This document shows positions 1 through 64,000 of a stretch of DNA of 64,000 nt, piece by piece (position 1 is the first letter of the stretch; each line of letters begins with the position of its first letter). The position numbers and the translations under genes are program-made. This stretch comes from a virus: the IMG/VR virus record IMGVR_UViG_3300045988_069864; one strand, written 5' to 3'. The notes under the pieces are model-generated. The model was not told the origin of the DNA. It saw only the letters and a program-made list of their open reading frames with translations, and did not search any database.

Positions 1-2787
1 GAAAAACTAAAAAGTAAAGGCTGGACCGAGACACCTGAAAACATCAAGAACGAATTTGGTCTGACTACTACTCAATATCGAGCTCAGAAAGCATTGGCTA
101 AAGATGAACGTCGAGGCTATGACGTGGCGAGAGCTAAATCGTTGGAAAGTGACGGTTTGGGTCCTACTGCCATTGCCAAAAAGATGTCTGAAGAACAAGG
201 CAAAAACATCAACGAATCTACTATTCGTTCTTGGCTTAATGAAGAGTCCGAAGCTCGTATGAATCAGGCTAAACAGACTGCTGAATTTATTAAGAAACAA
301 ATCGACGAAAAAGGCATGATTGATGTCGGTGTTGGTGTTGAACGAGAACTTGGTATATCCAAAGAAAAACTTAATCAAGCACTGGCAATTCTCGAAGCTG
401 AAGGCTATGAGCTTTATGGCGGTCGTGTTCCGCAGGTTACTAATCCTAATCAAATGACCACTCTTAAAGTCATTTGTCCTCCTGGTACTGAACATAAAGA
501 TATTTATGACTACGAAAATGTACATTCTCTGAATGAATATATTTCTCGTGACGGTGGCGAAACTTACGAAAAGAAGTTCCACTATCCTGAAAGCATGGAT
601 GCTAGTCGTCTTATGATTCGGTATAAAGAAGATGGCGGTATCGATAAAGATGGTGTTATTGAACTTCGTCGAGGCGTTCCTGATTTGTCTCTTGGTGAAT
701 CTCGTATCTCTCAGGTTCGAATCCTCGTTGACGGTGACAGATATTTGAAGGGCATGGCTGTTTATTCGGATAATATGCCTGATGGTGTCGATGTTATATT
801 TAACACCAATAAGTCCAAAGACGTTGCTATGCGAGATGTCCTCAAAAAGATTAAGGATGATCCGGACAATCCCTTTGGTTCCGCTATCAAGGATGTGGAA
901 AAGGGCGGTCAGTATTGGTATGATCCTAAAACCGGTAAACAAGTATCGGCATCAACTCCTGGTGCTAAGTTGGGTCTGATCAATAAACGAGCTGATGAGG
1001 GCGATTGGTCTGAATGGAAAGATGCACTTCCTGCTCAGTTCTTGTCTAAGCAATCATTGCATTTGGCTAAACAGCAGCTGAACATTGCCGCTTCTGATAA
1101 AGAGGCTGAGTTTGCAGAACTAAGTTCACTTACTAATCCTACTGTAAAGAAGTATTTACTTAATAAATTTGCAGATGAGTGTGATTCAGCAGCTGTACAT
1201 CTTCAAGCAGCAGCTCTGCCTGGTCAGAAGTATCATGTTATATTACCTGTTACTTCTATGAAGGACACCGAAGTGTATGCTCCAAGGTATGAAAATGGAT
1301 CTAAGCTCGCACTTATTCGATATCCTCATGGCGGCACCTTTGAGATTCCTATCTTGACTGTTAATAATAAACAGAAAGACGCCAAAGCTTTGCTTGGCAC
1401 TGATATTTCGGATGCTATCGCTATCAATAGTAAGGTTGCTGAGCGTCTGTCTGGTGCCGACTTTGATGGCGATACCGTTATGTGTATTCCTACTCATGAC
1501 AAAGCTGGCAAGGTCAAGATTACATCTACGAATCCGCTTAAGGGTCTCGAAGGATTTGATCCCAAGACTTCTTATGGTGCTACGAAGACTGTCAAAGATT
1601 CCGATGGCACTGAACATTATCTTCGTAACGGTAAAGAATATAAGATTATGAAGAATACTCAGACCGAAATGGGTAAGATCTCTAATCTTATCAGCGATAT
1701 GACACTGAAAGGTGCTAATGATGACGAGTTAGCTAGAGCTGTTCGTCATAGCATGGTTGTCATCGATGCCGAGAAACATAAGCTTGACTATAAGCAGAGC
1801 GAGATCGACAATAACATCTCCGCTCTTAAGAAGGAGTACCAGAATGGCGGCGGTGCATCCACCTTGATCTCTAGAAGTAAAGGCGAAATCCCGGTTCTTA
1901 AACGACAGGGTAGCCCTATAGTCAATACCAAGACCAAGAACGGAAAACCCAACCCCGACTATGATTCTAGTAAGCCTGAAGGGTCTCTCATATGGAAGAC
2001 TGCCGATGATGTGAATTACCAGTATACAAAAGTAAACAAGAAAACTGGTGAAGTTACTACCATCACCAAGCAACGTACTCAGAAGAGTACTCGTATGGCG
2101 GAGACAACCGATGCACGTACCCTTATCTCGGATGCAGATACCCCCATGGAACGGGCCTATGCGGACTATGCTAACCATATGAAGAACCTGGCCAATAAGG
2201 CCCGCATTGAGGTATCCACTACCGGTAAGATAGCATACTCCTCTAAGGCTAAAGCTACCTATCAGACCGAGGTAAAGAGTCTCAATGATAAGCTGAATAA
2301 TGCCTTACTTAATGCTCCACGAGAGCGACAGGCTACCCTTAAGGCTAATGCAGAGGTACAGCGCAAGGTTGATGCTGCTAAGGCCGCTATCAAAAAAGAG
2401 AACCCCGAGGCCACTAATAGGGAGATTAACAAGCTTGTTCGTAAGAAGATTGATGTTAAGAAGACCGGACAGCAGGCTCTTACTAAATATCGTACTGAGG
2501 CTGGTTCTGTAAAACGTAGTGATCGATCTATTAAGATTACTGATAAGGAATGGGAAGCTATTCAGGCTGGTGCTATTAGTGAGAATGTACTTAAGAAGAT
2601 CCTTGCTAACTCTGACGTGGATAGTCTTAGACAAAGAGCAACGCCTCGTTCTACAACAACGCTTAGTACAGCTAAGATTAATAGAATCAAAGCTATGCGC
2701 GCTTCTGGTAAAACACTTAATGAAATCGCAAATGCGCTTAATGTTTCTGCATCAACAGTTGCAACTTATGTGAAAGGAGTGAATTGA
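1..2787 (+). CDS. Single-polypeptide two-barrel RNA polymerase homolog (YonO-like), 5' end cut by window edge
   Basis: Frame is open from nt 1; the track start at 94 is an internal TTG. Beta-like barrel signature DGDRYLKGMAVYSDNMPDGVDVIFN (nt 730-804; compare bacterial beta GDK..RHGNKG..EDMP..G..VDI.LNP). Beta-prime-like catalytic loop RYPHGG...LSGADFDGDTVM (nt 1318-1482; compare NADFDGD). HTH-like segments near both ends. Confidence 0.6.
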   Translation, partial: EKLKSKGWTETPENIKNEFGLTTTQYRAQKALAKDERRGYDVARAKSLESDGLGPTAIAKKMSEEQGKNINESTIRSWLNEESEARMNQAKQTAEFIKKQIDEKGMIDVGVGVERELGISKEKLNQALAILEAEGYELYGGRVPQVTNPNQMTTLKVICPPGTEHKDIYDYENVHSLNEYISRDGGETYEKKFHYPESMDASRLMIRYKEDGGIDKDGVIELRRGVPDLSLGESRISQVRILVDGDRYLKGMAVYSDNMPDGVDVIFNTNKSKDVAMRDVLKKIKDDPDNPFGSAIKDVEKGGQYWYDPKTGKQVSASTPGAKLGLINKRADEGDWSEWKDALPAQFLSKQSLHLAKQQLNIAASDKEAEFAELSSLTNPTVKKYLLNKFADECDSAAVHLQAAALPGQKYHVILPVTSMKDTEVYAPRYENGSKLALIRYPHGGTFEIPILTVNNKQKDAKALLGTDISDAIAINSKVAERLSGADFDGDTVMCIPTHDKAGKVKITSTNPLKGLEGFDPKTSYGATKTVKDSDGTEHYLRNGKEYKIMKNTQTEMGKISNLISDMTLKGANDDELARAVRHSMVVIDAEKHKLDYKQSEIDNNISALKKEYQNGGGASTLISRSKGEIPVLKRQGSPIVNTKTKNGKPNPDYDSSKPEGSLIWKTADDVNYQYTKVNKKTGEVTTITKQRTQKSTRMAETTDARTLISDADTPMERAYADYANHMKNLANKARIEVSTTGKIAYSSKAKATYQTEVKSLNDKLNNALLNAPRERQATLKANAEVQRKVDAAKAAIKKENPEATNREINKLVRKKIDVKKTGQQALTKYRTEAGSVKRSDRSIKITDKEWEAIQAGAISENVLKKILANSDVDSLRQRATPRSTTTLSTAKINRIKAMRASGKTLNEIANALNVSASTVATYVKGVN

Positions 2788-2789
2788 TC

Positions 2790-3038
2790 ATGGAAAACGT
2801 TTGTGCATTGACCACAATTGACAATCCTTTTGATCCTTTTGATCAATTCAGTCAATGGTTTCTCTTTGATACAGAAAAAGGTTACAATTCTTGTTCTTAT
2901 CTTGCTCGAATTGCACAAACTTCTGATGAAATGTCTGAACAAGAATACAATCATGAAGTTGAACGAGCAATTGACGAAATTGTCACGATTAATCCTTTAG
3001 GAATTTACAAGAAAGTAACCAAACCCCAGGTAAATTAA
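2790..3038 (+). CDS. Small conserved phage protein, function unknown
   Basis: ATG 2790 lies 10 nt after GAAAGGAG and the ORF overlaps the RNAP stop. 82 aa, acidic, no motif I can name. Confidence 0.5.
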   Translation: MENVCALTTIDNPFDPFDQFSQWFLFDTEKGYNSCSYLARIAQTSDEMSEQEYNHEVERAIDEIVTINPLGIYKKVTKPQVN

Positions 3039-3058
3039 AAAGATGTAGAGCTAATGAT

Positions 3059-3067
3059 GGGGGGGGG
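3059..3067. repeat. Poly-G tract (about G9) that can pair with CCCCCTCC at 3082-3089
   Basis: Homopolymer read directly from the sequence, in an otherwise AT-rich intergenic leader. Confidence 0.6.
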
Positions 3068-3225
3068 TCGCTAAAACTACACCCCCTCCTCACATCGCCG
3101 GCCTCCTTGAAAATTCTCCGGAGGGATTTTTCAGAAAAGCATTTATATTTGAGGTAATGACGATACCAGTACGCTTAAGGTCGAGGAAGTTACGAATTGA
3201 TTGAGAATTAGATTGCTATTTTCCT

Positions 3226-3326
3226 GGGTAGTGTTTAGACGAGTTCATAAGGTTGAATATTGGTCATACTTTGCGCTCCTTTCAGTGAATCGTTATTGAC
3301 CTTATGGGCTCCTTTAAGCACTACCC
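3226..3326 (+). promoter_or_regulatory. 28-nt imperfect inverted repeat (long hairpin) in the leader of the late operon
   Basis: GGGTAGTG..CATAAGGT (3226-3253) against ACCTTATG..CACTACCC (3299-3326). Both 8-nt ends are perfect and 7 of 12 internal positions match. The loop is 45 nt. Confidence 0.45.
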
Positions 3327-3375
3327 AAAACTGTAACTAAAGTCATTAATAACTGTATGAAAGGAGGCAGGATTA

Positions 3376-3720
3376 TTGGCTAAAGTTAAATCAAAACCAA
3401 AGTATTCTAAAGAAAACCAACCCAAAATAAGGCCAGCTCTTACCCCAGAAGCAAGAGAGAATCAGCTTATTTCTTTAGCAGTCGACTTAGTGGAACAGAG
3501 ATTGCTTGATGGTACTGCCTCTTCTCAGGAAACTACTCATTTTCTCAAACTCGGTTCTATGAAGAATCGTCTTGAGATGGAAAAACTTCAAGAAGAGAAC
3601 AAGTTACTCCAGGCAAAGACTGAAGCGCTTCAATCCGCTAAACGAGTTGAAGAACTGTATTCCGAAGCTATCTCTGCCATGCGTCGATATAGCGGTAATG
3701 GTGATCCTGATGAGTATTAG
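3376..3720 (+). CDS. Putative small terminase / DNA-packaging protein
   Basis: First gene of the late operon, TTG start after AAAGGAGG. 114 aa, basic N-terminus plus coiled coil. Its position upstream of HNH and TerL supports the call; the family assignment is not certain. Confidence 0.4.
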   Translation: MAKVKSKPKYSKENQPKIRPALTPEARENQLISLAVDLVEQRLLDGTASSQETTHFLKLGSMKNRLEMEKLQEENKLLQAKTEALQSAKRVEELYSEAISAMRRYSGNGDPDEY

Positions 3721-4519: not shown

Positions 4520-4792
4520 ATGACAGAATGGATGGTTGCTGGGATCGTTGTAACAATTATTGGCGGTGGTTGGGCAGTTATTAAAGCTATTTCCGGTATT
4601 GTTCAACCATTGACAGAACAAATCACAAGACTCAATGATAGCATGAAATCGATCACTAATGATATGAACGAACTTACTGAACGAAACAGTAAAACTCATA
4701 CCCGATTGTTTCAAGCTATCGAAGAGCATGGTAAAATGCTAAGCGAACATGAAATTCGAATTGTAAAACTGGAAGAACATGAAAAGAAATGA
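4520..4792 (+). CDS. Small membrane protein, N-terminal TM helix plus coiled coil (BhlA/XhlA-like architecture)
   Basis: ATG 4520 follows GGAGGTGAG. The TM segment is MVAGIVVTIIGGGWAVIKAI, followed by a heptad-like charged tail. Confidence 0.4.
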   Translation: MTEWMVAGIVVTIIGGGWAVIKAISGIVQPLTEQITRLNDSMKSITNDMNELTERNSKTHTRLFQAIEEHGKMLSEHEIRIVKLEEHEKK

Positions 4793-4809
4793 GTGAAAGG
4801 AGGGATAGT

Positions 4810-5364
4810 ATGAAGTCTTATAATCACTCTGAAGAACTCTATCATCATGGCATCAAAGGTATGAAATGGGGTGTCCGGCGCTATCAGAATTCCGATGGTT
4901 CGCTTACTGCGGCTGGTCAGAAACGATACGCGAGAGATGCTCGAGAAAAAGAATTTAATAAGTATGATTCGTCCACTAAGACATATTACAAAACGTCTAA
5001 GAAAAATGGGCGAAGTGATTTGGAAGCAGATCCTAAACGTTATGCTAAAGAGGATCTATCTCGAACCAAAAAACTTGCTGACGAGTCAGCCAATCTTACA
5101 AGAAATCTAAAAACTGCTAATGATCAGGCTATCAAAAGTAAACCCAAGACTCGAATGGACCTTAGCAAGATGACTGACCAGGAGATGCGGGAAAAGATTA
5201 ATCGAGAATTACTTGAACGACAGTATAACGATGTCTTTAATCCTCCTACTGTTTCTAAGGGTCGGGAGTATGCAAGCAAAGTTCTCGATACTACTGGTAC
5301 TGTTTTGGCTATTACTAGTTCCGCATTGGGAATCGCCCTGGCTATTAAAGATCTTAAGGGGTGA
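4810..5364 (+). CDS. YHHG-motif paralog 1 of 4 (unknown function)
   Basis: ATG 4810 follows GAAAGGAGGG. N-terminus is ELYHHGIKGMKWGVRRYQNSDGSLTAAGQKRY. The body is Lys/Arg-rich and there is a C-terminal hydrophobic helix. Confidence 0.7.
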   Translation: MKSYNHSEELYHHGIKGMKWGVRRYQNSDGSLTAAGQKRYARDAREKEFNKYDSSTKTYYKTSKKNGRSDLEADPKRYAKEDLSRTKKLADESANLTRNLKTANDQAIKSKPKTRMDLSKMTDQEMREKINRELLERQYNDVFNPPTVSKGREYASKVLDTTGTVLAITSSALGIALAIKDLKG

Positions 5365-5372
5365 TCGTCAAA

Positions 5373-6428
5373 ATGGAATTGTATCACCACGGAATCAAGG
5401 GACAGAAGTGGGGCATTCGCCGGTATCAATATGCTGACGGTACTTATACTCCTGCTGGTAGGAAGCGATACGGCGTTAGTCAAAGTTCAAGTAATGCTCA
5501 ACGTGTTGCAACCATGATGGGTATGAGAGTAAAAGATGTGGTTAACACAGCGAGAACTCAAGTTACCGGAAGACAGTATGTTGATACATATCTGAAACGA
5601 GGTACAACATTTGCAAGAATTCAAACTTCTAAAGAGTTTGAAAATTTTGCATTCTACGCCACTTATAAGAAGGCTGACTCTGATAAGTATATGGGTCTGT
5701 TTGGGAAGAATCTGACTAGTCGTGCAAACAGTGATGCTAAGCGAGCAGAGAAAACAGCCAATGCTTCCGGTAGTGAAGCTGATGCCGCCACAGCTAAGCA
5801 ACTTCGAGATAAAGCTAACAACATGAAAGTTTATCAGCTGAAGCTAGAGACTACTAAGAAACTGAAAGTTCCGTCAGATGAGAATGCTAGTGACATCACT
5901 GCTAATCTACTGAAAGACTCTGAGTTTAAGAAGAATGTTGTTGCTTCAATTGAGGACTCGAAGGAAAAGATGCGTCGTCCTACTCAACAGGTCTTGTTTA
6001 AGCAAGCTCAAAATGCTTTGAATAAAGATCCGAGTAGGATGACAACTTCAGAGAAGGTTGCAGTCTACAAAGCTTTGAATCTGTCTTTGACTAATCACAA
6101 TCAGCAGGAAGTTGCAGCTCAGGCTAAGTTCTACTCGGAACTAAAGAAGAAAGGTTACAATGCACTGCTCGATTATAATGACAAAGATTATTCGAGTTAT
6201 CATGCTAAGCGACCAATGATCGTGTTCGATACTGACTCCGTGAAGCTTCAATCAGTGGCTGAGGCTAATCCGAAGGTCGTGGAAAAGATGTATGCGAAGT
6301 ATAACGCTGAACGAATCATGAAGGAAGTCGGAGCCAATACAATTGGCTATGTCGGCAAACTTGGTAAAAAGACTGTATCCGAATGCGAATCTTATGTGAA
6401 ACAGAAAACTGACAGCTATTTGAGTTAA
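5373..6428 (+). CDS. YHHG-motif paralog 2 of 4
   Basis: N-terminus is ELYHHGIKGQKWGIRRYQYADGTYTPAGRKRY. At 351 aa it is the longest member. Confidence 0.7.
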   Translation: MELYHHGIKGQKWGIRRYQYADGTYTPAGRKRYGVSQSSSNAQRVATMMGMRVKDVVNTARTQVTGRQYVDTYLKRGTTFARIQTSKEFENFAFYATYKKADSDKYMGLFGKNLTSRANSDAKRAEKTANASGSEADAATAKQLRDKANNMKVYQLKLETTKKLKVPSDENASDITANLLKDSEFKKNVVASIEDSKEKMRRPTQQVLFKQAQNALNKDPSRMTTSEKVAVYKALNLSLTNHNQQEVAAQAKFYSELKKKGYNALLDYNDKDYSSYHAKRPMIVFDTDSVKLQSVAEANPKVVEKMYAKYNAERIMKEVGANTIGYVGKLGKKTVSECESYVKQKTDSYLS

Positions 6429-6450: not shown

Positions 6451-7170
6451 ATGAATTCCAATGAACTTTACCACCATGGCGTCAAAGGCATGAAATGGGG
6501 TGTTCGCAAAGATCGATCTAGCTACACATCGACTGGACTTAGAGCTGCTATTGCTAGAAGACAGAATGAAAAAGTAGATGCGAACTTTAAAAACTGGAAA
6601 GAAAATTCTGAGAAAAGGACCAATGCCATTGAGCTCGGCAAGAAAATGAACCAATCCAAGATGGCATACGAAAATAACAAATCCGATAAGACATTTCGGC
6701 AGACGTATAAGCAGGACAGTAAAGCTTATAAAAAGGCTCTTAGAAGTAACACTACTTATCGCAAAGGTCAGATTAAGCAGGAAGTTGGTCAGGATGCTTC
6801 TCGGAAATACCTGAGCGAAGCTAAAAAGATAAAGAAACAGTTGGATTCCGATCCTTCTAATAAGCAGCTCCAAAAGAAGTATAATGATCTGATGAGTAAG
6901 CACGACATTGAACGAGCTAATGCTCGTAGAGCTCCAGAAGTAGCAGCGAACCGGTCTAGAAAGAAAGCTGCCATCAAGAGAGCGATGACAATGTCCGTAA
7001 AAGCTGCAGCTACAACCGCTGTTGTTACTGCTGGAACATACGCGGTAAATAAGTATTTGTCAGATCATAATGTAACTTTGAATGGCAACAATCTTCGAGT
7101 CGATTCTAACATGGTCAACACATTTAGTAATGCTGTCAAAGTTGGTAGCGAAATTTTTAAGTATATTTAA
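6451..7170 (+). CDS. YHHG-motif paralog 3 of 4
   Basis: N-terminus is ELYHHGVKGMKWGVRK. The body is K-rich with a hydrophobic segment near the C-terminus. About 43 nt of the 5' end is identical to paralog 4. Confidence 0.7.
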   Translation: MNSNELYHHGVKGMKWGVRKDRSSYTSTGLRAAIARRQNEKVDANFKNWKENSEKRTNAIELGKKMNQSKMAYENNKSDKTFRQTYKQDSKAYKKALRSNTTYRKGQIKQEVGQDASRKYLSEAKKIKKQLDSDPSNKQLQKKYNDLMSKHDIERANARRAPEVAANRSRKKAAIKRAMTMSVKAAATTAVVTAGTYAVNKYLSDHNVTLNGNNLRVDSNMVNTFSNAVKVGSEIFKYI

Positions 7171-7207: not shown

Positions 7208-7795
7208 GTGGATTCCAGTGAACTTTACCACCATGGCGTCAAAGGCATGAAATGGGGTGTTAGGCGGTATCAGCGTGAAGATGGTACTCGTACTATTGCT
7301 GGACAGAAGCACGCTCAGACATTAACCGGCGGAGTTGCTGGTGTGATCAGAAAGAAGCAGCGCAGTAATGCTGAAAAAGACTTAGCACGAACGATCTCTA
7401 AGCAAAAGCAAGTCAATAGTGAACTGCGTGAACTTCGCGGTTATTCAAAAAACCCAAGTAAAATCGGTCGTTCAAAATTGGCTACTGCTATTCGAAATCA
7501 GCAGATTAAGTCTTTGGAACGGACCAATTCTAAGCTCGACCAGCGTAAAAAAGAGAGCACGAGCGCTTTGAAAGAGCTGAAACAGATCGATGAATATCAG
7601 GCAAAGAAAGCTGCCGACAGAGCGCAGAGGAAACTCGCTAATGCAAAGATCAAAGATCTTCAGAAGAAGTATGGGCGTCTCGAAGATCAGATGACTTATG
7701 GTAAAAACGCCGACACTAAGGCTAACGCTCGTATTCAGAAGCAGATGTCTAGTATCGACACTCAGATTAACAAGCTTAAAAAGTCTACACGATAA
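7208..7795 (+). CDS. YHHG-motif paralog 4 of 4
   Basis: GTG 7208 lies 9 nt after AAAGGAGGTGA. N-terminus is ELYHHGVKGMKWGVRRYQREDGTRTIAGQKH, followed by a K/R/Q-rich coiled-coil-like tail. Confidence 0.7.
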   Translation: MDSSELYHHGVKGMKWGVRRYQREDGTRTIAGQKHAQTLTGGVAGVIRKKQRSNAEKDLARTISKQKQVNSELRELRGYSKNPSKIGRSKLATAIRNQQIKSLERTNSKLDQRKKESTSALKELKQIDEYQAKKAADRAQRKLANAKIKDLQKKYGRLEDQMTYGKNADTKANARIQKQMSSIDTQINKLKKSTR

Positions 7796-33247: not shown

Positions 33248-34705
33248 TTATGCAAATTTCCAGTAGACATGAAGATCTTCTTCGTCTACGACAATCTCTT
33301 TAATCAGCTCTTGTACAAGGGCTTTGATCTCGTCAATATCTCCACTATCAATCACATCACACAAACTCGATGCGATTTCTACAGCTTCTTCTTTTGACAT
33401 CTTCTCTTTATTTTCTAAAGATCTCATGTTAACTTCTAGCTTTTCTTTTTCAGCGAGCAATGCATCGGTTCTACTCTTAATCACATTTATATCTAGAGTT
33501 CCAAGAGTATATAAATCTATCAATTTATCAAGTTGTGAATCTATTTCTTCGATACGTTTGGAGATGACTTTTATTTTCATCGCATTCTCATCGCTTTCGG
33601 TTGAACCAATATCAAACGATTCCGGATGTAATGCAAGTTTACGAACTTCATCAAACACTTCTTTCTCGAGTTCTTCAGCTTTCCAAATTTTATTTTTGCA
33701 ACGTTCTTCTTTGGGTATGTCTTTCCACTTACCAGCACGACAAGATCGTTTGTAGCAATTGCAATACAACTTCGCACTGTTCTTGGTCTTCGCTCGACGG
33801 AAGAAGAACTTATTTCCGCAGTGACCGCAACGTATCATTCCAGCAAGAGGAGCATTAATTCGAGATATACGACTGTTAGCATCTTCGTCACGCTCGGCTA
33901 GTATAGCCTGTGTTTTTTCAAATGTTTCCTTATCTATAATCGGTTTGTGAATTCCTTCGTACCATTCACCTTTATATGATACCATGCCGATATAATGCTT
34001 ATTTTCTAGCAATGGTCTAATATTATGTCGATTCCAGTTTCCATCGTAAGTAGTTCTATACCCCTTTGATTGTAGCATTTCTGCAACTCGTCTTTGCGAT
34101 ATTCTCATGTTGAACAGTCTAAACATTTCTCGAATTTGCATTGCCTCATATTCGTGGACTACGAGTTCATCATTTTCGACTCGATATCCGATAGGTACGT
34201 AACGACTACCACACCATTTTCCTTCTTTGGCTCTACCGATCTTACCAACTTCCATACGCTCTTTTATTTGTTCACGTTCAAGTTGGGCGAAAACACTTAG
34301 AATACCAATCATAGCTCGTCCGAACGGCGTACTCGTATCTAGATTCTCAGTCATACTAATGAAATCTACGTTGTTTGGAAGGAACACGTCCTCGATAAGA
34401 GTCAGTGTATCCTTCTGCGAACGTGAAAGTCGATCGAGTTTATATACTAAAACGGCGTTGACCTTGTTACTTTCTGCATCTTTAATTAAAGACTGTAGTC
34501 CGGGACGATCTGTGTCTGCTCCAGAGTAACCAGCATCTGTGTATATTTTATGAACTACCCAACCTTTAGCTTCACAGTATTTAATCATTCTCTCAGTTTG
34601 TTCATTGATAGAGTATCCATCCTTAGCTTGCTCTAATGTAGATACGCGTGGATATAATGCTACACGCATGGCGTTTCTATTGACCACTCCGTATGTTTCG
34701 CCCAT
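33248..34705 (-). CDS. int: Large serine recombinase (integrase)
   Basis: Resolvase-type N-terminus (YPRVSTLEQ...GYSGA..DRPGL...VLVYKLDRLSRS), a recombinase domain, Cys-rich zinc ribbon (CGHCG...CNCYKRSC) and a C-terminal coiled coil. Confidence 0.9.
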   Translation of the reverse strand: MGETYGVVNRNAMRVALYPRVSTLEQAKDGYSINEQTERMIKYCEAKGWVVHKIYTDAGYSGADTDRPGLQSLIKDAESNKVNAVLVYKLDRLSRSQKDTLTLIEDVFLPNNVDFISMTENLDTSTPFGRAMIGILSVFAQLEREQIKERMEVGKIGRAKEGKWCGSRYVPIGYRVENDELVVHEYEAMQIREMFRLFNMRISQRRVAEMLQSKGYRTTYDGNWNRHNIRPLLENKHYIGMVSYKGEWYEGIHKPIIDKETFEKTQAILAERDEDANSRISRINAPLAGMIRCGHCGNKFFFRRAKTKNSAKLYCNCYKRSCRAGKWKDIPKEERCKNKIWKAEELEKEVFDEVRKLALHPESFDIGSTESDENAMKIKVISKRIEEIDSQLDKLIDLYTLGTLDINVIKSRTDALLAEKEKLEVNMRSLENKEKMSKEEAVEIASSLCDVIDSGDIDEIKALVQELIKEIVVDEEDLHVYWKFA

Positions 34706-45483: not shown

Positions 45484-48400
45484 GTGCTTGATTTCTTGCT
45501 GATTTCAACAAGATCCAAGAAGCAAGGAGTCGTCGAGGTATATCCTAAGTTCGTGATAAAGAAAAGTAAGGACTTAATGATCCGAGGCGGCGATTTCTAT
45601 GCTGTTTGGATCGAGGATCGGGGCTTGTGGTCCACAGATGAGCAGGACGCTTTATATTTGATTGACCAAGCGTTGGATGCATACGCAAATGATTATAAAC
45701 AGAAAACTTCTGATACGGTCATAACCCTTCATTTGTGGGATGCTGGCTCAGGAATGATTGACGCTTGGCATAAGTATTGTCAGAAGCAGATGCGTGATAA
45801 CTTCCACATGCTTGATGAAAAATTGATATTCTTGAACACTCCTACGAATAAGAAGGATTATGCAAGTAAAAAGCTCAATTATTCTCTTGAACCTGGCAGC
45901 ATTGATGCATATGAGAAGATCATTTCTACCTTATATTCTCCAGAAGAGCGCCACAAGATTGAATGGGCTATTGGGTCTATTATCGAAGGCGATTCGAAAA
46001 CGATTCAGAAATTTGTAGTCTTTTACGGTTCAATGGGCACAGGTAAATCTACGATTCTGAATATTATTCAACAGTTATTTGAGGGTTACTATTCGGTCTT
46101 TGATGCTAAGGCATTGGGATCGTCTAGTAACTCTTTTGCTTTGGAGCCGTTCAAAAACAATCCTCTTGTGGCTATTCAACATGATGGTGACTTATCGAAA
46201 ATCGAAGATAACACTCGTTTAAACAGTCTGGTTTCTCACGAGATGATGACCGTGAATGAGAAGTTTAAGTCTGCATATTCTAATCGATTTAAATGTTTCT
46301 TGTTCATGGGTACGAATAATCCTGTGAAGATTACTGACGGTAAATCCGGTTTGATTCGAAGACTGATTGATGTATCTCCATCTGGAAACAAGTTGAAGCC
46401 AAAAGAGTATAAGGCTGCTGTAAAGCAGGTGTCGTTTGAACTTGGAGCTATAGCAAGCCATTGTCATGAGGTATATTTAGACGATCCTGGAGCATACGAT
46501 GACTATATTCCGGTTGCAATGCTGGGAGCATCAAACGACTTCTACAACTTTATTGTCGATAACTATCATATTTTCAAGAAAGACGATGGAACGACACTGA
46601 AAGCTGCTTGGGAGATGTATAAAGTATATTGTGATGAGGCGAAGGTTCCTTTCTCGTTGAGTAAGATGAAATTCAAGGAGGAATTGAAGAACTATTTCTG
46701 GGACTTCAAAGAACGATTCGTAGCAGAAGATGGATCTCGTGTACGTAGCTACTACACAGGATTCAGAACTGATAAATTTGAAAACGAAATTGAAGATCCA
46801 AAAATTCCCAGGGAGGAAAAACCGTGGATTCAATTCAATTCGACGGAATCTATATTTGACAAAGAATGCGCGGATTGCTTTGCACAGTATGCTTCGTCAA
46901 AAGAGACTCCGAGTAAAAAATGGGATGACGTAACTTCTACTCTGAAAGATTTGGATACAACAAAGCTTCATTATGTGAAAGTTCCGGAGAATCATATAGT
47001 GATCGACTTCGATATTCCAGATGAGAAAGGAGAGAAGTCGCTTGAGAGAAACCTTGCTGCTGCTTCTTCTTGGCCTACTACTTATGCGGAACTTTCTAAA
47101 AGTGGTGCGGGTATCCACCTACATTATGTTTACGCTGGCGATGTTACTCGCCTTAGTCGGGTGTACGATGATCATATTGAAATAAAAGTATTTAACGGAA
47201 AAAGCTCGCTGAGGCGCAAATTAACCAAATGCAATGATATTCCGATCGCGACTATTAACTCCGGGTTGCCGTTGAAGGAGGATGCAAAATTGATTAATAA
47301 AGACGTAGTTCAGACTGAAAAAGGTCTTCGAACTACTATTAAGAAATGCCTAAACAAAGAGGTTCATCCGAACACGAGATGTAATGTTGATTTCATCAAT
47401 GATATTTTGACTAAAGCCTATGATAGTGGAATTTCATATGACGTATCTGATATGAAAAATGCTGTAATTGCTTTTGCAGCACAAAGCACCAATCAATCGG
47501 ACTATTGCATCAAGCTCGTCAATAGGATGAAATTCAAGTCGGACGAACCTTCAGTTAATAAAGAAGATGAGTCAGCAGACCTGGTCTTTTACGATGTAGA
47601 GGTCTTCCCGAACTTATTCCTTGTGAACTGGAAAATTGCTGGCGAAGGAAAACCGGTAGTCCGAATGATCAATCCTAAGCCGAGTGAGATTGAGGATTTA
47701 CTGAGATTCAAACTTGTTGGCTTTAACTGTCGTCGTTACGACAATCACATGCTTTATGCCAGAATGATTGGCTATACAACCGAGCAGTTGTATGAATTGT
47801 CTCAAAAGATCATTAACACCAAGAAAGGTACTAAAGGCGTATTCTTCGGTGAAGCCTATAACCTCTCGTACACTGATATTTACGACTTCGCTTCTGCCGG
47901 TAACAAAAAGAGCTTGAAGAAACTCGAGATCGAGATGGGTATCCATCATCAGGAGCTCGGACTTCCTTGGGATCAGCCGGTACCGAAAGAAAGATGGATT
48001 GAGGTTGCTGAATATTGCGATAATGACGTTATTGCGACCGAGGCAGCATTCAACTATCTGAAAGCGGATTGGACTGCTCGAGAAATTCTGGCTGACTTGG
48101 CTGGCATGACGGTTAATGATACGACTAACAGTCTCACAACCAAGATTATATTTGGTAACAACAAGAAACCCCAAGGATCTTTCTGTTATCGAGATATGTC
48201 GAAACCGGTCACGGCACTTGATCCGGAAGTCGAAGCATTCTTGAACATGGCTTGTCCCGAAATGATGCAGGCTGCTACTGATGAATCTTATCTCCCATAT
48301 TTTCCTGGGTACAAATTCGAGGGTGGCAAGTCTACTTACCGTGAGGAAGAAGTCGGTGAGGGTGGCTATGTATATTCTGAACCTGGCATATATTTCGATG

Positions 48401-49461
48401 TAGCGCTGCTTGATATTGCTTCCATGCATCCTCATAGTCTTATTGCCGAGTGTTTGTTGGGTGTCCAATTCACTAAAGCATTCCGTGATATTGTTGAGGG
48501 TCGAGTGAGTATCAAGCATGAAGCTTGGGATGAAGTTAGCCATATGCTGGATGGTAAGCTTGTTCCTTATATTCAGAAAGTAAAAGATGGAGAACTAACT
48601 TCAAAACAGCTTGCTGATGCACTTAAGACGGCCATTAACTCGGTTTATGGTTTAACATCTGCCAGCTTCGACAATCCGTTCCATGATCCTCGTAACAAGG
48701 ATAACATCGTAGCTAAGCGTGGCGCTCTATTCATGATCGACTTGAAACATGAAGTTCAGAAACGAGGATTCACTGTTGCTCATATCAAGACGGACTCAAT
48801 CAAGATCCCGAATGCTACTCCGGAGATTATTGAGTTTGTTATGGATTTCGGCAAGCGTTATGGCTACACATTCGAGCATGAGGCTACTTATGAACGTATG
48901 TGTCTCGTGAATGATGCTGTTTATATTGCTAAGTATAAAGACGGTAAACATGCTGGAGAATGGACTGCTACTGGTAAGCAATTCGCTGTTCCTTATTTGT
49001 TCAAGACTCTGTTTAGCAAGGAACCTATTGAATTCGACGACGTATGTGAGACTTTCTCGGTTAGCTCTGCTTTATATTTGGACATGAATGAACGTCTACC
49101 CGAAGGCGAACATAACTACCAATTCATCGGAAAGGTTGGTCAATTCTGTCCGATTAAACCTGGCTGCGGTGGCGGTGAACTTGTTCGGGAGGGTGTCGAT
49201 AAGGATGGTAACACCAAATACGATTCTGCTTCTGGTGCCAAAGGTTATCGTTGGCTTGAATCTGAGATGGTTCGAGTTCTTGGTAAAGAGGAAGATATTG
49301 ATCGCTCGTTCTATGGAAAACTCGTAGATGACGCTGTTGAATCTATTTCTCAGTACGGAGATTTCGAACAGTTTGTCGGAGATGATATTTCTAATGAGGA
49401 ACCTCCGTGGAATAATCCAGACGAGCCTTGGAACGAAACAACCGCATTCGATGTGCGATAA
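45484..49461 (+). CDS. Replicase fusion: SF3 (D5/P4-type) helicase + AEP primase-polymerase + family B DNA polymerase with 3'-5' exonuclease
   Basis: Walker A VVFYGSMGTGKST, then LFMGTNNP and RRL. AEP motifs VIDFDIPD and SGAGIHLHY. Exo motifs FYDVEVFPN and YCDNDV. PolB motifs DIASMHPHS, KTAINSVYG and HIKTDSI. Confidence 0.75.
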   Translation: MLDFLLISTRSKKQGVVEVYPKFVIKKSKDLMIRGGDFYAVWIEDRGLWSTDEQDALYLIDQALDAYANDYKQKTSDTVITLHLWDAGSGMIDAWHKYCQKQMRDNFHMLDEKLIFLNTPTNKKDYASKKLNYSLEPGSIDAYEKIISTLYSPEERHKIEWAIGSIIEGDSKTIQKFVVFYGSMGTGKSTILNIIQQLFEGYYSVFDAKALGSSSNSFALEPFKNNPLVAIQHDGDLSKIEDNTRLNSLVSHEMMTVNEKFKSAYSNRFKCFLFMGTNNPVKITDGKSGLIRRLIDVSPSGNKLKPKEYKAAVKQVSFELGAIASHCHEVYLDDPGAYDDYIPVAMLGASNDFYNFIVDNYHIFKKDDGTTLKAAWEMYKVYCDEAKVPFSLSKMKFKEELKNYFWDFKERFVAEDGSRVRSYYTGFRTDKFENEIEDPKIPREEKPWIQFNSTESIFDKECADCFAQYASSKETPSKKWDDVTSTLKDLDTTKLHYVKVPENHIVIDFDIPDEKGEKSLERNLAAASSWPTTYAELSKSGAGIHLHYVYAGDVTRLSRVYDDHIEIKVFNGKSSLRRKLTKCNDIPIATINSGLPLKEDAKLINKDVVQTEKGLRTTIKKCLNKEVHPNTRCNVDFINDILTKAYDSGISYDVSDMKNAVIAFAAQSTNQSDYCIKLVNRMKFKSDEPSVNKEDESADLVFYDVEVFPNLFLVNWKIAGEGKPVVRMINPKPSEIEDLLRFKLVGFNCRRYDNHMLYARMIGYTTEQLYELSQKIINTKKGTKGVFFGEAYNLSYTDIYDFASAGNKKSLKKLEIEMGIHHQELGLPWDQPVPKERWIEVAEYCDNDVIATEAAFNYLKADWTAREILADLAGMTVNDTTNSLTTKIIFGNNKKPQGSFCYRDMSKPVTALDPEVEAFLNMACPEMMQAATDESYLPYFPGYKFEGGKSTYREEEVGEGGYVYSEPGIYFDVALLDIASMHPHSLIAECLLGVQFTKAFRDIVEGRVSIKHEAWDEVSHMLDGKLVPYIQKVKDGELTSKQLADALKTAINSVYGLTSASFDNPFHDPRNKDNIVAKRGALFMIDLKHEVQKRGFTVAHIKTDSIKIPNATPEIIEFVMDFGKRYGYTFEHEATYERMCLVNDAVYIAKYKDGKHAGEWTATGKQFAVPYLFKTLFSKEPIEFDDVCETFSVSSALYLDMNERLPEGEHNYQFIGKVGQFCPIKPGCGGGELVREGVDKDGNTKYDSASGAKGYRWLESEMVRVLGKEEDIDRSFYGKLVDDAVESISQYGDFEQFVGDDISNEEPPWNNPDEPWNETTAFDVR

Positions 49462-50826: not shown

Positions 50827-50901
50827 GGGCCATTAGCTTAAGGGTAAAGCTGGCAGCTCATAACTGCTTGAGTGCGGGTTCGAATCCTGCATGGCCCACC
50901 A
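50827..50901 (+). tRNA. tRNA with anticodon CAT (elongator Met or Ile2-type), CCA encoded
   Basis: Hand fold: 7-bp acceptor stem (GGGCCAT/ATGGCCC), 4-bp D stem, anticodon stem GGCAG/CTGCT with loop CTCATAA, 5-nt variable loop, T arm GCGGG-TTCGAAT-CCTGC, then ACCA. Confidence 0.85.
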
Positions 50902-53130: not shown

Positions 53131-53420
53131 AAAAAGATGATATTTTGGTGGTTAAATGCAATGTTTTTCTGAAACAAGATAAATATAAGGATCTCTATCA
53201 AAGCATTCTTGAGCAAAAAATAAACGGTGTGGTTATTCTTCCAGCATATTGCGATGCCGTCATTGTTCCAAAAGATACTGAAATTAAGGTTGAACCTGAC
53301 TCTGACCAGCCTAACCATACATGTATAAATTGTAAGTGCGGTGATAATATAGCTTCTGATGATCCTTGTTACAGATGTATGGAAAAAAGTCTCTGGGAGC
53401 CTAAGGATGATCTTAAATGA
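53127..53420 (+). CDS. Hypothetical 97-aa protein with C-terminal Cys cluster
   Basis: Start/stop overlaps with both neighbours. Cys cluster CINCKCG....DDPCYRC. Confidence 0.55.
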   Translation: MKKDDILVVKCNVFLKQDKYKDLYQSILEQKINGVVILPAYCDAVIVPKDTEIKVEPDSDQPNHTCINCKCGDNIASDDPCYRCMEKSLWEPKDDLK

Positions 53421-55120
53421 ATAAGGAAATATGGAAGGATATCGAGGGCTTTCCTAATTATGAAGTAAGTAATCATGGACAAATTAGAAACAAAACAACT
53501 AACCATATTTTATCTCCGATCCCGGACAAAGACGGATACTTAAGAGTACATTTAAATACTGATAAAACTGTAAAAAGAGTTCATCGATTAGTGGCCGAAG
53601 CGTTTATTCTAAACCCGAACAATAAGTCCCAAGTTAATCATATAGACGGTGACAAAACTAACAATGATGAAACTAATCTCGAATGGGTTACTGTTGGAGA
53701 AAACAACATTCATGCATTAAAAACAGGATTACGAAATATTTCTAGACCAGTCCGAATAGTAGAAACAGGAGAAATTTTTAGCAGTATACGAGAGTGTGCT
53801 TCCGCAATAAATGCTAAAGAACAAAATGTCCAAGCAGTTGCTTCTGAAATGAAAAATCGTAAAACAGTAAATGGTCTACATATTGAATATATGGAAAAAC
53901 CTAAACGTACTCCATTCTTATACGATTATCAAATGGAAGCTGTGCAAAAACTCCATAACGGATGCATTCTTTGTGGTTCTGTGGGATCTGGCAAATCAAG
54001 AACAGGACTTTTCTATTATTTCAAAGAAAACGGTGGTTGGATTGATGAGAACGGTTATGTTCCAATGAAGAACCCTCAAGACTTAATTATCATTACAACT
54101 GCAAAAAAGAGAGATTCGCTCGAATGGGAAGGAGAGTTAGCTAATTTTCTAATTTCAAAAAATCCAGAAGTAAGTTATTACAAAAACAAAGTGATAATCG
54201 ATAGCTGGAATAATATCAAAAAGTACAAAGATGTAACTGGAGCATTCTTTTTGCTGGATGAACAACGATTAGTCGGTAGCGGTTCATGGGTTAAGACTTT
54301 TCTTAAGATTGCTAAATCAAATCAATGGATATTATTAAGTGCAACTCCTGGGGATTCGTACATGGACTATTTGCCGGTATTTTTGGCAAACGGTTTCTTC
54401 AGAAACAAAACCGAATTCACAAGAGAGCATGTTGTATATTCCAGATACACAAAGTATCCAAAGATCGATCACTATGTAGGTACACAATTTCTCAATCGAT
54501 TACGAGACAAAGTTCTTGTAAAAATGAACTATCAGCATAAGATTAATACTCATCATGAGGACATCTATTGCCGGTATGATATTTCAGCTTACAAAGACGC
54601 TATTCGTAACCGTTGGGACCCATATAAAAACGAACCAATTCAACAAGCATCGGGGCTTTGCTATGTTCTAAGAAGAATAGTCAATTCGGATGAATCAAGA
54701 CAGATACAGTTACTCGAAATTCTTGAGGACTACGATCGAGCAATTATATTCTATTCGTTTGACTATGAATTAGATATTCTTAGAAATCTTGGTTACGGCG
54801 AAGATGTTGAAGTTGCTGAATACAATGGGCACAAGCATCAGCCTGTTCCAGAAGGTAAGAAGTGGATATATTTATGTAACTATACATCAGCATGCGAAGG
54901 TTGGGAGAACACACGAACCAACTGTATTATATTTTACAGCCAAAGCTACTCATATAAAGTCATGACTCAAGCTGCTGGACGGATCGATCGACTGAACACT
55001 CCATACGCTGATTTATATTACTATCACCTCAAAAGCCGTTCTGGAATCGACCTAGCCATCTCTAAAGCTCTTAGAGAGAAGAAGCAATTTAATGAAGTTC
55101 GTTGGGTTAACGGACATTGA
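53417..55120 (+). CDS. HNH homing-endonuclease-like module (NUMOD4 + HNH + IENR-like) fused in frame to an SF2 (DEAD/SNF2-like) helicase
   Basis: aa 1-~155 carry WKDIEGFPNYEVSNHGQIRN, HRLVAEAF and VNHIDGDKTNN..NLEW. From the internal Met 159 (nt 53891) the helicase motifs follow: YDYQ, GSVGSGKS, LLDEQ and SATPG. Confidence 0.7.
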   Translation: MNKEIWKDIEGFPNYEVSNHGQIRNKTTNHILSPIPDKDGYLRVHLNTDKTVKRVHRLVAEAFILNPNNKSQVNHIDGDKTNNDETNLEWVTVGENNIHALKTGLRNISRPVRIVETGEIFSSIRECASAINAKEQNVQAVASEMKNRKTVNGLHIEYMEKPKRTPFLYDYQMEAVQKLHNGCILCGSVGSGKSRTGLFYYFKENGGWIDENGYVPMKNPQDLIIITTAKKRDSLEWEGELANFLISKNPEVSYYKNKVIIDSWNNIKKYKDVTGAFFLLDEQRLVGSGSWVKTFLKIAKSNQWILLSATPGDSYMDYLPVFLANGFFRNKTEFTREHVVYSRYTKYPKIDHYVGTQFLNRLRDKVLVKMNYQHKINTHHEDIYCRYDISAYKDAIRNRWDPYKNEPIQQASGLCYVLRRIVNSDESRQIQLLEILEDYDRAIIFYSFDYELDILRNLGYGEDVEVAEYNGHKHQPVPEGKKWIYLCNYTSACEGWENTRTNCIIFYSQSYSYKVMTQAAGRIDRLNTPYADLYYYHLKSRSGIDLAISKALREKKQFNEVRWVNGH

Positions 55121-63287: not shown

Positions 63288-63324
63288 TAGGGGGCTTGCT
63301 AGCAACAAGTCCTCTTTATTTTTG
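63288..63324 (+). terminator. Terminator-like hairpin
   Basis: GGGGCTTG-CTAGCAA-CAAGTCCTC imperfect stem followed by TTTATTTTTG. Confidence 0.5.
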
Positions 63325-63420
63325 ACAAAAAATTATTACTATATATGAATTGACTCACAAAAAATTATTACTATATATGAATTGACTCACAAAAAATTAT
63401 TACTATATAGTAATAAATTC
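63325..63420. repeat. Tandem 32-bp direct repeat, 2 full units + 1 variant
   Basis: ACAAAAAATTATTACTATATATGAATTGACTC occurs at 63325 and 63357. The third unit (63389-) turns into the palindrome. Confidence 0.9.
63397..63416. repeat. Perfect 20-bp palindrome TTATTACTATATAGTAATAA (copy 1)
   Basis: Self-complementary; an identical copy lies at 63625-63644. Confidence 0.9.
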
Positions 63421-63693
63421 GTGGCCACTTTTTGGGTTATGCCCACTTTAGTTTTGGGCTTCAACAAAATTCAAGTGGTCGTGGTCAAACTTGTGGCCAA
63501 AAAAGTGGGCTTTTGCCCGGTTTTGAAAAGTAGTTTTGGCCACAAAAAATAACGATACATCGTCGTTTTTTCTCGAAATGGCCAAAAGCCCATTTATTTT
63601 TTAATAATTCTTTAAAAATTAAAATTATTACTATATAGTAATAAATCGAGTTTTTATATATAGATGAGAAAACAAAGTGGGTTTTTGGCCACG
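63421..63693. repeat. Iteron-like array: GTGGCCA / TGGCCA(C/A) paired with A/T5 + GTGGG/CCCAC elements, both orientations
   Basis: Copies lie at about 63421, 63481 (variant GTGGTCA), 63493, 63537, 63579 and 63675. One example is GTGGCCAAAAAAGTGGGC, and another is GTGGGTTTTTGGCCAC. Confidence 0.6.
63625..63644. repeat. Perfect 20-bp palindrome TTATTACTATATAGTAATAA (copy 2)
   Basis: Identical to 63397-63416. The two copies bracket the iteron-like array. Confidence 0.9.
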
Positions 63694-63717
63694 AGTTTTA
63701 GCTTTATGGAGGTTTTT

Positions 63718-64000
63718 ATGGCCAATTATATTTTTGAGAACATGCAATCCTATTACCCGTTTCTGAGCGAGCGAATGGTTTCATACAAGAAAGTTGGTCC
63801 GTATGAGTTGATCGTCAAGACCAATGACGGTGAGACTATTCTGTATGACGATGTCAATCATTCGATTAGGAGACTGCCTCGAGATAGCAATAATATGACC
63901 GAGCAAGAGGTGAGTGTTGAGTTTAGGCAAAGACTTCGTCGATTAATGACTCGACAAGGTGTTAGTCAATTAGAGCTTTCGGAACTTACTGGCATTCCTC
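63718..64000 (+). CDS. HTH (XRE-like) protein, 3' end cut by window edge
   Basis: ATG 63718 follows GGAGG. Open to the window end. FRQRLRRLMTRQGVSQLELSELTGI looks like the start of an XRE HTH. Confidence 0.5.
   Translation, partial: MANYIFENMQSYYPFLSERMVSYKKVGPYELIVKTNDGETILYDDVNHSIRRLPRDSNNMTEQEVSVEFRQRLRRLMTRQGVSQLELSELTGIP

Follow-up and report, generated by a model that had tools for sequence, protein, structure and literature searches.

Analysis of a 64,000-nucleotide stretch of viral DNA (IMG/VR record IMGVR_UViG_3300045988_069864; the whole stretch is referred to below as the window) revealed that its first gene (positions 1–2787, + strand) encodes a large protein that is predicted, with high confidence, to be an active nucleotide polymerase of the two-barrel superfamily. 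Judged by sequence, it is a new member of the family represented by PHROG 4291 and by ORF75 of Lactococcus phage 1706, and belongs to the superfamily of the SPbeta polymerase YonO but not to the YonO family proper. Its modelled core is that of a Mg-dependent polymerase resembling the RNA-dependent RNA polymerase (RdRP) QDE-1, in the same superfamily clade as YonO. With a probability of roughly 55%, the protein is a DNA-dependent transcriptase of the structural operon of the phage that is not carried in the virion. The fold, catalytic signatures, helix-turn-helix (HTH) domains, family membership, synteny and cos position were established in the present work; the type of template, the timing, the genes targeted, and what is done by the HTHs and by a small protein encoded next to the polymerase are inferred.

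The open reading frame (ORF) of the polymerase (frame 1) is open from base 1 of the window to a TGA stop at 2785–2787, which amounts to 928 codons. Metagenome assemblies hold proteins that are 99–100% identical over the window part, and these public entries show that the full polymerase consists of 982 amino acids; the N-terminal 54 residues (first 162 nucleotides) fall outside the window, which carries codons 55–982. One such 982-residue protein (P0001) differs from the window part in one residue. Residues are numbered below as in the full-length protein, i.e., window residue number plus 54. Since PHROG 4291 ("RNA-dependent RNA polymerase") is matched over profile positions 45–907 of 909 with a score of 1114 bits and an E-value of 0, the similarity of sequence argues that this is not a chance ORF. 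A first-pass annotation, made from the nucleotide sequence without database searches, had described a single polypeptide of more than 928 residues with its N-terminus beyond the window and had proposed that the full-length ORF be recovered; the frame open from base 1 and the 982-residue proteins agree with this description and supply the missing part. All of the motif strings quoted in that annotation were located in the translation, namely, the beta-type segment DGDRYLKGMAVYSDNMPDGVDVIFN at nucleotides 730–804, RYPHGGTFEIPILTV from nucleotide 1318, LSGADFDGD at 1447–1473, GLGPTAIAKKM..STIRSWL at about 154–237, and GKTLNEIANALNVSASTVATYV inside 2659–2775. The second signature was said to follow the first by about 200 residues, whereas the measured distance is 243.

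An AlphaFold2 model built from an 80-sequence alignment (mean predicted local distance difference test score, pLDDT, 86.3; predicted TM-score, pTM, 0.78) contains strand clusters at residues 258–322 and 464–552, in the order barrel B and then barrel A on one chain. They correspond to a beta-subunit-type double-psi beta-barrel (DPBB-B; residues ~258–322, nucleotides 610–804, + strand) and a beta-prime-type barrel (DPBB-A; residues ~464–552, nucleotides 1228–1494, + strand), both of which were delimited using the modelled strands, invariant alignment columns and hhalign. The model thus displays the property that defines the two-barrel superfamily, two DPBBs in one active-site module. A Foldseek search with the model returned QDE-1 (E-value, 2.8e-8) and plant RDR2 (E-values, 2.7e-7 to 8e-4) as the only PDB matches with a probability of 1.0. 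These two enzymes (PF05183) are the best structural matches, with about 550–990 aligned columns, at a sequence identity of 10–13% and TM-scores of 0.23–0.30 to the window protein; they have no HTH modules and are cellular enzymes acting on RNA or single-stranded DNA. The largest subunits of Pol III, Escherichia coli RNA polymerase (RNAP) and African swine fever virus RNAP came next as weaker PDB matches. In BFVD, the best confident matches with a name were phage "RdRP" proteins, and RlpA-type DPBB proteins were also among the matches. The structure prediction therefore sustains the earlier proposals that both barrel signatures reside on one chain and that the protein resembles the RdRPs of RNA interference: QDE-1 and RDR2 are matched with full probability, and the RNAP largest subunits weakly.

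Invariance of residues was scored on 133 representatives that are 44–84% identical to the query. In barrel B, the invariant residues are D271, G272, R277, Q292, R294, K304, G305 and D318, and, in barrel A, R494, P496, S538, G539, A540, D541, D543, G544 and D545. The latter include the conserved positions of the R494-Y-P496-H motif (nucleotides 1318–1329, + strand) and of the metal loop S-G-A-D541-F-D543-G-D545 (nucleotides 1450–1473, + strand). According to Ruprich-Robert and Thuriaux (PMC2919709), R-x-P, DxDxD and basic-pair signatures are common to all two-barrel polymerases, and the invariant DxDxD loop with R-x-P upstream of it in barrel A conforms to this rule. The spacing from R-x-P to DxDGD is 47 residues here, 45 in QDE-1 (numbering as in PMC2919709) and 43 in YonO (R492–D535). 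For barrel B, the signature sought was two invariant basic residues and one Asp (K979, K987 and D837 in Rpb2; R738, K743 and D709 in QDE-1); the basic residues R294 and K304 are invariant and were aligned with R266 and K271 of YonO. The barrels are followed by two conserved helices in a bridge-helix-like position (residues 607–647, nucleotides 1657–1779, + strand), supported by the model, the alignment with YonO and the invariant residues M611, G612, N616, L617, D620, M621, D643, K646 and H647. The retention of the catalytic residues in all of the 133 representatives lends further weight to the two-barrel assignment.

Comparison with YonO yielded nothing by BLASTP, and the family profile likewise found no match in the single YonO sequence. 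When compared by hhalign with a YonO family profile of 26 sequences, RYPH..DFDGD was aligned with RSPH..DNDGD of YonO (E-value, 0.024; 81 columns), and, in sub-region alignments, R294/K304-G305 with R266/K271-G272 (E-value, 0.034). A further sub-region alignment, a block of 165 columns (E-value, 0.0016), paired MGxISN with IGEISN (IGEISNN in YonO) and IDAEKH with IDFAKT. Five motif blocks (R..KG, RxPH, DxDGD, GxxSN and IDxxK) are thus found in the same order in YonO, with weak statistics. Compared with YonO, barrel B of the window family has a hairpin insert of five residues between the invariant R and K. YonO is a protein of 839 residues, its family alignment contains no HTH modules, and it ends in an invariant, Zn-ribbon-like C-terminal cluster of four cysteines (C799, C802, C816 and C819); the window protein has a C-terminal HTH, without a cysteine cluster of the YonO type, and shows neither this hallmark nor the homology expected within the YonO family. 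The earlier designation "YonO-like" consequently holds at the superfamily level, where it is supported by the hhalign E-values of 0.002–0.03 and the order of motifs, and has to be given up at the family level, where BLASTP found nothing and the C-termini differ. On these sequence comparisons, the polymerase and YonO are assigned to one superfamily clade and to different families, in agreement with the survey of 2010, in which the 1706 family was listed as YonO-like and "1706" and "SPbeta" formed separate YonO-like families (PMC2919709).

Profile searches pointed to barrel homology by way of the relatives. The Pfam RdRP domain (PF05183) was matched by 1706 ORF75 (E-value, 7e-5; 22.1 bits) and by its homologue in Lactococcus phage P162 (E-value, 6e-4; 19.1 bits), in both cases over the DFDGD region and the following helices and under the gathering threshold of 23.8 bits, and the alignment with the YonO profile preserves the order of motifs. 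The window protein itself gave no match to PF05183 at E ≤ 1, and phmmer and hmmsearch against PDB sequences returned HTH matches only and no polymerase. Other phage single-subunit two-barrel RNAPs of the same major clade include gp66 of crAss-like phage phi14:2 and gp64 and gp96 of Thermus phage P23-45, and the polymerases of P23-45 and of crAss-like phi14:2 transcribe phage genes (PMC10770324). Of these, gp66 and gp96 are carried in the virion as fusions with large proteins and lack HTH ends. All three were absent from the top 50 PDB matches of Foldseek, and a crAss polymerase was weakly matched in BFVD (E-value, ~1). Identity between the "Cyano_RUMTOR_01356" profile (DFDGD; PMC10770324 supplement) and the polymerase family could not be established.

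Full-length homologues of the polymerase were found by tblastn in 250 phage records. The best of them, from a human faecal phage, shares 58% identity, followed by homologues in Arthrobacter, Gordonia, Streptomyces, Microbacterium and Curtobacterium phages (41–45%), Faecalibacterium phage FP_oengus gp55 (44%), and those in Lactococcus phages P162 and P118 (36%). Identity to ORF75 of phage 1706 is 35% over the whole length (BLASTP; residues 1–975; E-value, 1e-167), and a seven-way alignment of the family is collinear. An exhaustive search yielded 2,559 clusters of homologues at 50% identity, 887 of them with E ≤ 1e-30; repeating it with a seven-sequence profile added just a microdiversity cluster of 74% identity and no extra diversity. 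Relatives are encoded in 301 GTDB species genomes. Isolates of [Ruminococcus] torques, Hungatella hathewayi, Enterocloster lavalensis, Blautia faecis, Cuneatibacter and Lachnospira are among them, so that this phage lineage is likely to infect gut Clostridia or Lachnospiraceae. The window protein and the family of 1706 ORF75, FP_oengus gp55 and the actinophage proteins, which are 35–58% identical over the full length, share the same HTH ends, the same catalytic motifs and the same synteny (exonuclease, polymerase, a gene for about 80 residues, cos). The difference is one of lineage only, the present phage being a temperate phage of about 65 kb of gut Clostridia or Lachnospiraceae. The RdRP-like core, both HTH ends and the HHpred link to PF05183 have been described (Koert et al. 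2021, bioRxiv 10.1101/842583), and neither the family nor its RdRP/YonO-like motifs and two HTH ends are new to the literature and PHROGs.

The N-terminal HTH (residues 106–133; nucleotides 154–237, + strand) is represented in the model by helices 109–120 and 126–133. Although no confident Pfam match was obtained for this segment in the window protein, the homologous segment of 1706 ORF75 (104–129) matches HTH_23 (E-value, 2e-11) and Sigma70_r4_2 (32.1 bits; cut-off, 25.7), and that of Arthrobacter phage Correa gp95 (79–112) matches HTH_23 (E-value, 1.4e-9); the family profile also matches HTH repeats in PDB. The C-terminal HTH (nucleotides 2659–2775, + strand) passes the Pfam HTH_38 threshold in the window protein itself (E-value, 3e-6; 27.2 bits; cut-off, 27), while the same region of FP_oengus matches HTH_23 (E-value, 1e-9) and Sigma70_r4_2 (32.8 bits; cut-off, 25.7). 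The model suggests further modules, i.e., a helix pair at 50–73 (an HTH-like unit at nucleotides 1–57, + strand, partly outside the window), a winged-helix-like unit at 167–213 (nucleotides 337–477, + strand) and a three-helix bundle at 900–934. The HTH-like ends were correctly recognized in the first-pass annotation, as the Pfam thresholds passed in relatives demonstrate, but were wrongly taken for unusual additions, since they occur throughout the family and have been published. HTH ends are normal for this family, yet unusual among two-barrel polymerases.

A compact operon encodes, in this order, an XRE/HTH_3 protein, a 96-residue protein, an exonuclease, the polymerase (from the fourth gene) and an 82-residue protein; the second and third genes were read from near-identical contigs. 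The 82-residue gene (phrog_4303; 2790–3038, + strand) starts 2 nucleotides past the polymerase stop codon and encodes the motif LTTxDNPxDPF...W..D...RIA, with T9, D11, N12, P13, P16, W23, D27 and R40 invariant. A phrog_4303 gene was found within 200 nucleotides downstream of the polymerase in all of the 77 genome loci, and an exonuclease gene precedes the polymerase in 76 out of 80; the trio of exonuclease, polymerase and small gene also occurs in actinophages and lactococcal phages. The small protein showed no Pfam match and no significant PDB profile match, and Foldseek found nothing significant for its single-sequence model (pLDDT, 72). It is regarded here as a candidate cofactor of the polymerase.

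Downstream of this gene lies a cos site (3059–3135), identified from deposited phage ends and from 68 loci, in which its core is kept. It is composed of an inverted repeat of a G-run and a C-run, CATCGC and then TTCTCCGGAGGGA. Positions 3059–3104 (GGGGGGGGGTCGCTAAAACTACACCCCCTCCTCACATCGCCGGCCT) agree with the right ends deposited for Correa, Streptomyces phage Popy, P162 and 1706, whereas the sequence from 3105 onwards (CCTTGAAAATTCTCCGGAGGGA) matches the left end of Correa, which predicts virion ends at 3104|3105, with the right end at 3104 and the left end from 3105. The site is conserved in prophages of gut Clostridia as well as in phages of Arthrobacter, Streptomyces and Lactococcus, and there are related contigs of about 61.6 kb whose ends fall at cos. 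Since cos lies in 3039–3375, with the right end at 3104, the virion chromosome ends with the two genes for the polymerase and its small partner, and circularisation is needed to connect them with the structural operon. The first gene of the structural and packaging operon (phrog_4259; 3376–3720, + strand) is followed by genes for an HNH endonuclease, four DUF7211 proteins, TerL, portal and further structural proteins. The position "immediately upstream of the late operon" given earlier is thus right as to the side, and the 82-residue gene, cos and a structured leader intervene.

This leader contains a hairpin of 29–30 bp (3225–3327, + strand), in which 3226–3254 pairs with 3298–3326; it was identified by covariation and by a covariance model. 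The apical loop carries an invariant CTCCTTTC at 3276–3283, and an invariant, anti-Shine-Dalgarno-like CUCCUUUC is found in the hairpin loop. Among 12 sequences, 94.7% of the cells of the helix are paired, compared with 34–46% in slid controls, and compensatory changes occur in 20 of the 30 pairs (2–7 in controls); the observed values were attained in none of 500 shuffles. The z-score of the hairpin is -4.4. Besides the window, the hairpin is present in L013 (5787–5927) and in 59 genome loci. The covariance model located the helix on the + strand in 61 sources and found no match in the FP_oengus, actinophage and lactococcal loci. About 50 G-U cells occur on the + strand, for which the covariance-model scores are 40–60 bits higher than for the - strand, which points to an RNA of the same sense as the late genes. 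The alternatives of a minus-strand gene or a DNA cruciform were rejected given the G-U cells, the + strand scores and the lack of a consistent minus-strand ORF. A known RNA was rejected as well, as Rfam returned nothing at the gathering threshold and one spurious miRNA hairpin below it. The hairpin may be a new phage RNA motif.

The proposed course of events is as follows. Host RNAP would make the phage polymerase from its own operon, at the end of the early/replication region, after which the polymerase would transcribe phage genes without recourse to host sigma factors, most probably the structural operon of about 29 kb just past cos on circular or concatemeric DNA. DNA or promoter recognition could be supplied by the sigma-region-4-like HTH modules (two or three N-terminal and one C-terminal), with the co-encoded protein of about 80 residues as a candidate cofactor. 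YonO, likewise a single-chain two-barrel polymerase of a temperate siphophage, is DNA-dependent and transcribes the SPbeta late operon (PMC5467207). The yonO gene sits just upstream of that operon, and the window polymerase gene is in a comparable place, so a late-gene role is suggested by position and by analogy. The transcriptase reading is further favoured because the gene sits at the early/late junction, with no further large gene before cos and the structural operon, because the DNA-binding modules are related to sigma region 4, because the genome has a dedicated primase in another place, and because a search of 3039–3375 for a sigma-70-like promoter found none between cos and the first late gene.

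Several observations weigh against this reading. The closest solved folds in the Foldseek search are RNA-dependent enzymes, and the Asp that would bind the second Mg in barrel B has three candidates (D271, D282 and D318). No terminator was found between the polymerase operon and the structural genes, so that read-through of host RNAP across cos could account for late-gene expression with no phage enzyme involved. A promoter motif attributable to the polymerase was not identified, and the searchable literature yielded no data on expression, activity or virions for any member of the family. In lactococcal relatives, the neighbours of the polymerase gene are lysis and structural genes, a setting that would fit late expression and packaging into the virion.

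The window also contains TTCGCG-N17-TATG(A) sites, of which 13 were found (≤1 mismatch) compared with 3.6 expected. Eleven of them are on the + strand (32726, 36415, 36543, 36770, 37411, 37904, 38851, 39626, 39938, 40995 and 49462). The sites inspected are intergenic, lie 20–45 nucleotides before the ribosome-binding sites of early genes, often just past T-rich stretches, and look, by sequence, like an atypical promoter class. The motif was rejected as a late promoter, as its sites cluster at 36.4–41.0 kb before early genes and none is near the late operon or the polymerase operon.

A different role, in which the enzyme would be packaged in the virion and injected for transcription of early genes, like phi14:2 gp66, N4 vRNAP and P23-45 gp96, appears unlikely. 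According to this explanation, the N-terminal peptide HYGxxRxSGRYPWGSG would be a capsid-targeting or ejection signal and the TTCGCG-N17-TATG sites the early promoters of the enzyme. The peptide is predicted to be disordered in the AlphaFold2 model, and G27, S32, G33, R34, G38 and G40 in it are invariant in the 133 representatives. By pattern, it resembles the DUF7211 motif of the four proteins encoded before TerL, of 1706 orf7 and of Correa gp7, and the excess of atypical sites before early genes, as well as the gene order in lactococcal relatives, would fit such an enzyme. However, the likeness of the peptide to the DUF7211 proteins of the window was not significant in a hidden Markov model test (E > 4). 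Moreover, 1706 ORF75 has no structural label, though six other ORFs of that record have one, and in the window and in actinophages the gene is in an operon with replication/recombination genes behind sigma-70-like promoters. As to the motif itself, the four successive genes before TerL (4789–5364, 5361–6428, 6451–7170 and 7208–7795, + strand) start with ELYHHG[IV]KG[MQ]KWG (Pfam DUF7211). The motif (HHG[IV]KGMKWG or HYGVxGMKWGRRK) is present in three copies in 1706 orf7 ("structural protein") and in two in Correa gp7, and the N-terminus of the polymerase, HYGMPRRSGRYPWGSG (outside the window), resembles it at the pattern level only.

It is also improbable that the enzyme is associated with replication, making primer or activator RNA at an origin or near cos, recognised by the HTHs, and is no general transcriptase. 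The adjacent exonuclease gene, the VRR-Nuc, HNH and helicase genes that are also among the neighbours in actinophages, and the two-barrel core common to the replicative polymerase PolD (PMC10770324) would suit such a role. But the phage already encodes a protein of 1325 residues with primase-like and DNA polymerase regions (phrog_4210; 45484–49461, + strand), because of which a priming role is not needed, as well as a helicase; furthermore, YonO and P23-45 gp96 and gp64 are transcriptases (PMC10770324, PMC5467207), and the gene is conserved beside cos and the late operon, not beside an origin-like region.

A genuine RdRP that copies or amplifies phage or host RNA, e.g., the structured leader, is very unlikely, although the best structural matches are RNAi-type RdRPs, the annotations of 1706, P118 and FP_oengus read RdRP, and a conserved structured RNA lies about 190 nucleotides downstream of the polymerase operon. 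The annotation is merely transferred from weak Pfam or HHpred similarity, QDE-1 uses DNA templates too (PDB 7y7r and 7y7s), YonO is DNA-dependent (PMC5467207), and three to five DNA-binding HTH modules favour the recognition of double-stranded DNA. Finally, a DNA-binding regulator or a cos/terminase accessory protein with a degenerate core, as implied by the SEA-PHAGES label "HTH DNA-binding protein" and by the multiple HTHs, the weak matches to HTH models of terminase small subunits and the position beside cos, is likewise very unlikely, because the catalytic-site residues are all invariant across phyla, which is unexpected for a dead enzyme, and a separate small-terminase-like candidate gene (3376–3720) follows cos.

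An extension of the transcriptase reading, in which the polymerase, the partner of about 80 residues and the leader hairpin form one co-inherited late-switch module, is put forward tentatively, as a possibility that may well prove wrong. Without a host sigma factor, the enzyme would start transcription beside the re-sealed cos site by means of its sigma-region-4-like HTHs, and the 30-bp hairpin with its CUCCUUUC loop, as the 5' element of the transcript, might control translation of the structural operon or processivity. The arrangement would parallel that in SPbeta, in which the YonO-dependent late transcript begins with an unannotated non-coding RNA (PMC5467207).

As for the rest of the genome, near-identical contigs of 59–64 kb were found in human-gut metagenome assemblies. 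Because the last 644 bases of the window match, in a near-identical contig, a region 1.35 kb upstream of the window start, the genome is taken to be circular and about 65.3 kb long. The serine integrase gene (33248–34705, - strand) marks the phage as temperate. These data imply that the window covers all but about 1.35 kb of a circularly closed temperate siphophage genome. It contains one tRNA-Met gene (50827–50901, + strand) and a gene (53417–55120, + strand) for a 567-residue protein that matches HNH endonucleases over the first ~150 residues and a helicase over the rest. The start of the polymerase operon (63289–64000, + strand) comprises a terminator-like hairpin (63289–63315) and the XRE/HTH_3 gene from 63718. 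Between them, three tandem 32-nucleotide repeats (63325–63420) and a fourth copy (63617–63648) overlap sigma-70-like promoters; the palindrome ATTACTATATAGTAAT is complete in the third and fourth repeats, and its left half only is present in the first two. GTGGCCA/TGGCCAC boxes are also present in 63289–63720, a region that, by sequence, looks like an operator/promoter switch.

Single-chain two-barrel RNAPs are thought to be similar to the ancestor of all cellular RNA polymerases. To our knowledge, few phage enzymes of this type have been studied biochemically, namely, YonO, crAss gp66, and P23-45 gp64 and gp96. The present protein belongs to a very large family in phages of Actinobacteria and Firmicutes, many of them phages of gut and soil bacteria, for which databases keep the label "HTH DNA-binding protein" or "RdRP", the former label ("helix-turn-helix DNA-binding domain protein") being borne by most of the actinophage homologues. 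Among the branches seen here, it is the sole one with built-in sigma-4-like HTHs, and could reveal how promoters are recognised by a minimal two-barrel enzyme in the absence of sigma. No report of the partner gene or of the arrangement of polymerase, cos and leader RNA was found in the literature searched, and both make the family attractive for experiments. Tractable hosts are at hand in Lactococcus lactis, Arthrobacter and Streptomyces, with prophages in [Ruminococcus] torques ATCC 27756 and Hungatella hathewayi, and the fixed order of polymerase, small gene, cos, leader RNA and structural operon offers concrete experimental targets. If the late-switch module proves true, this would be the first two-barrel RNAP shown to have promoter-recognition domains of its own.

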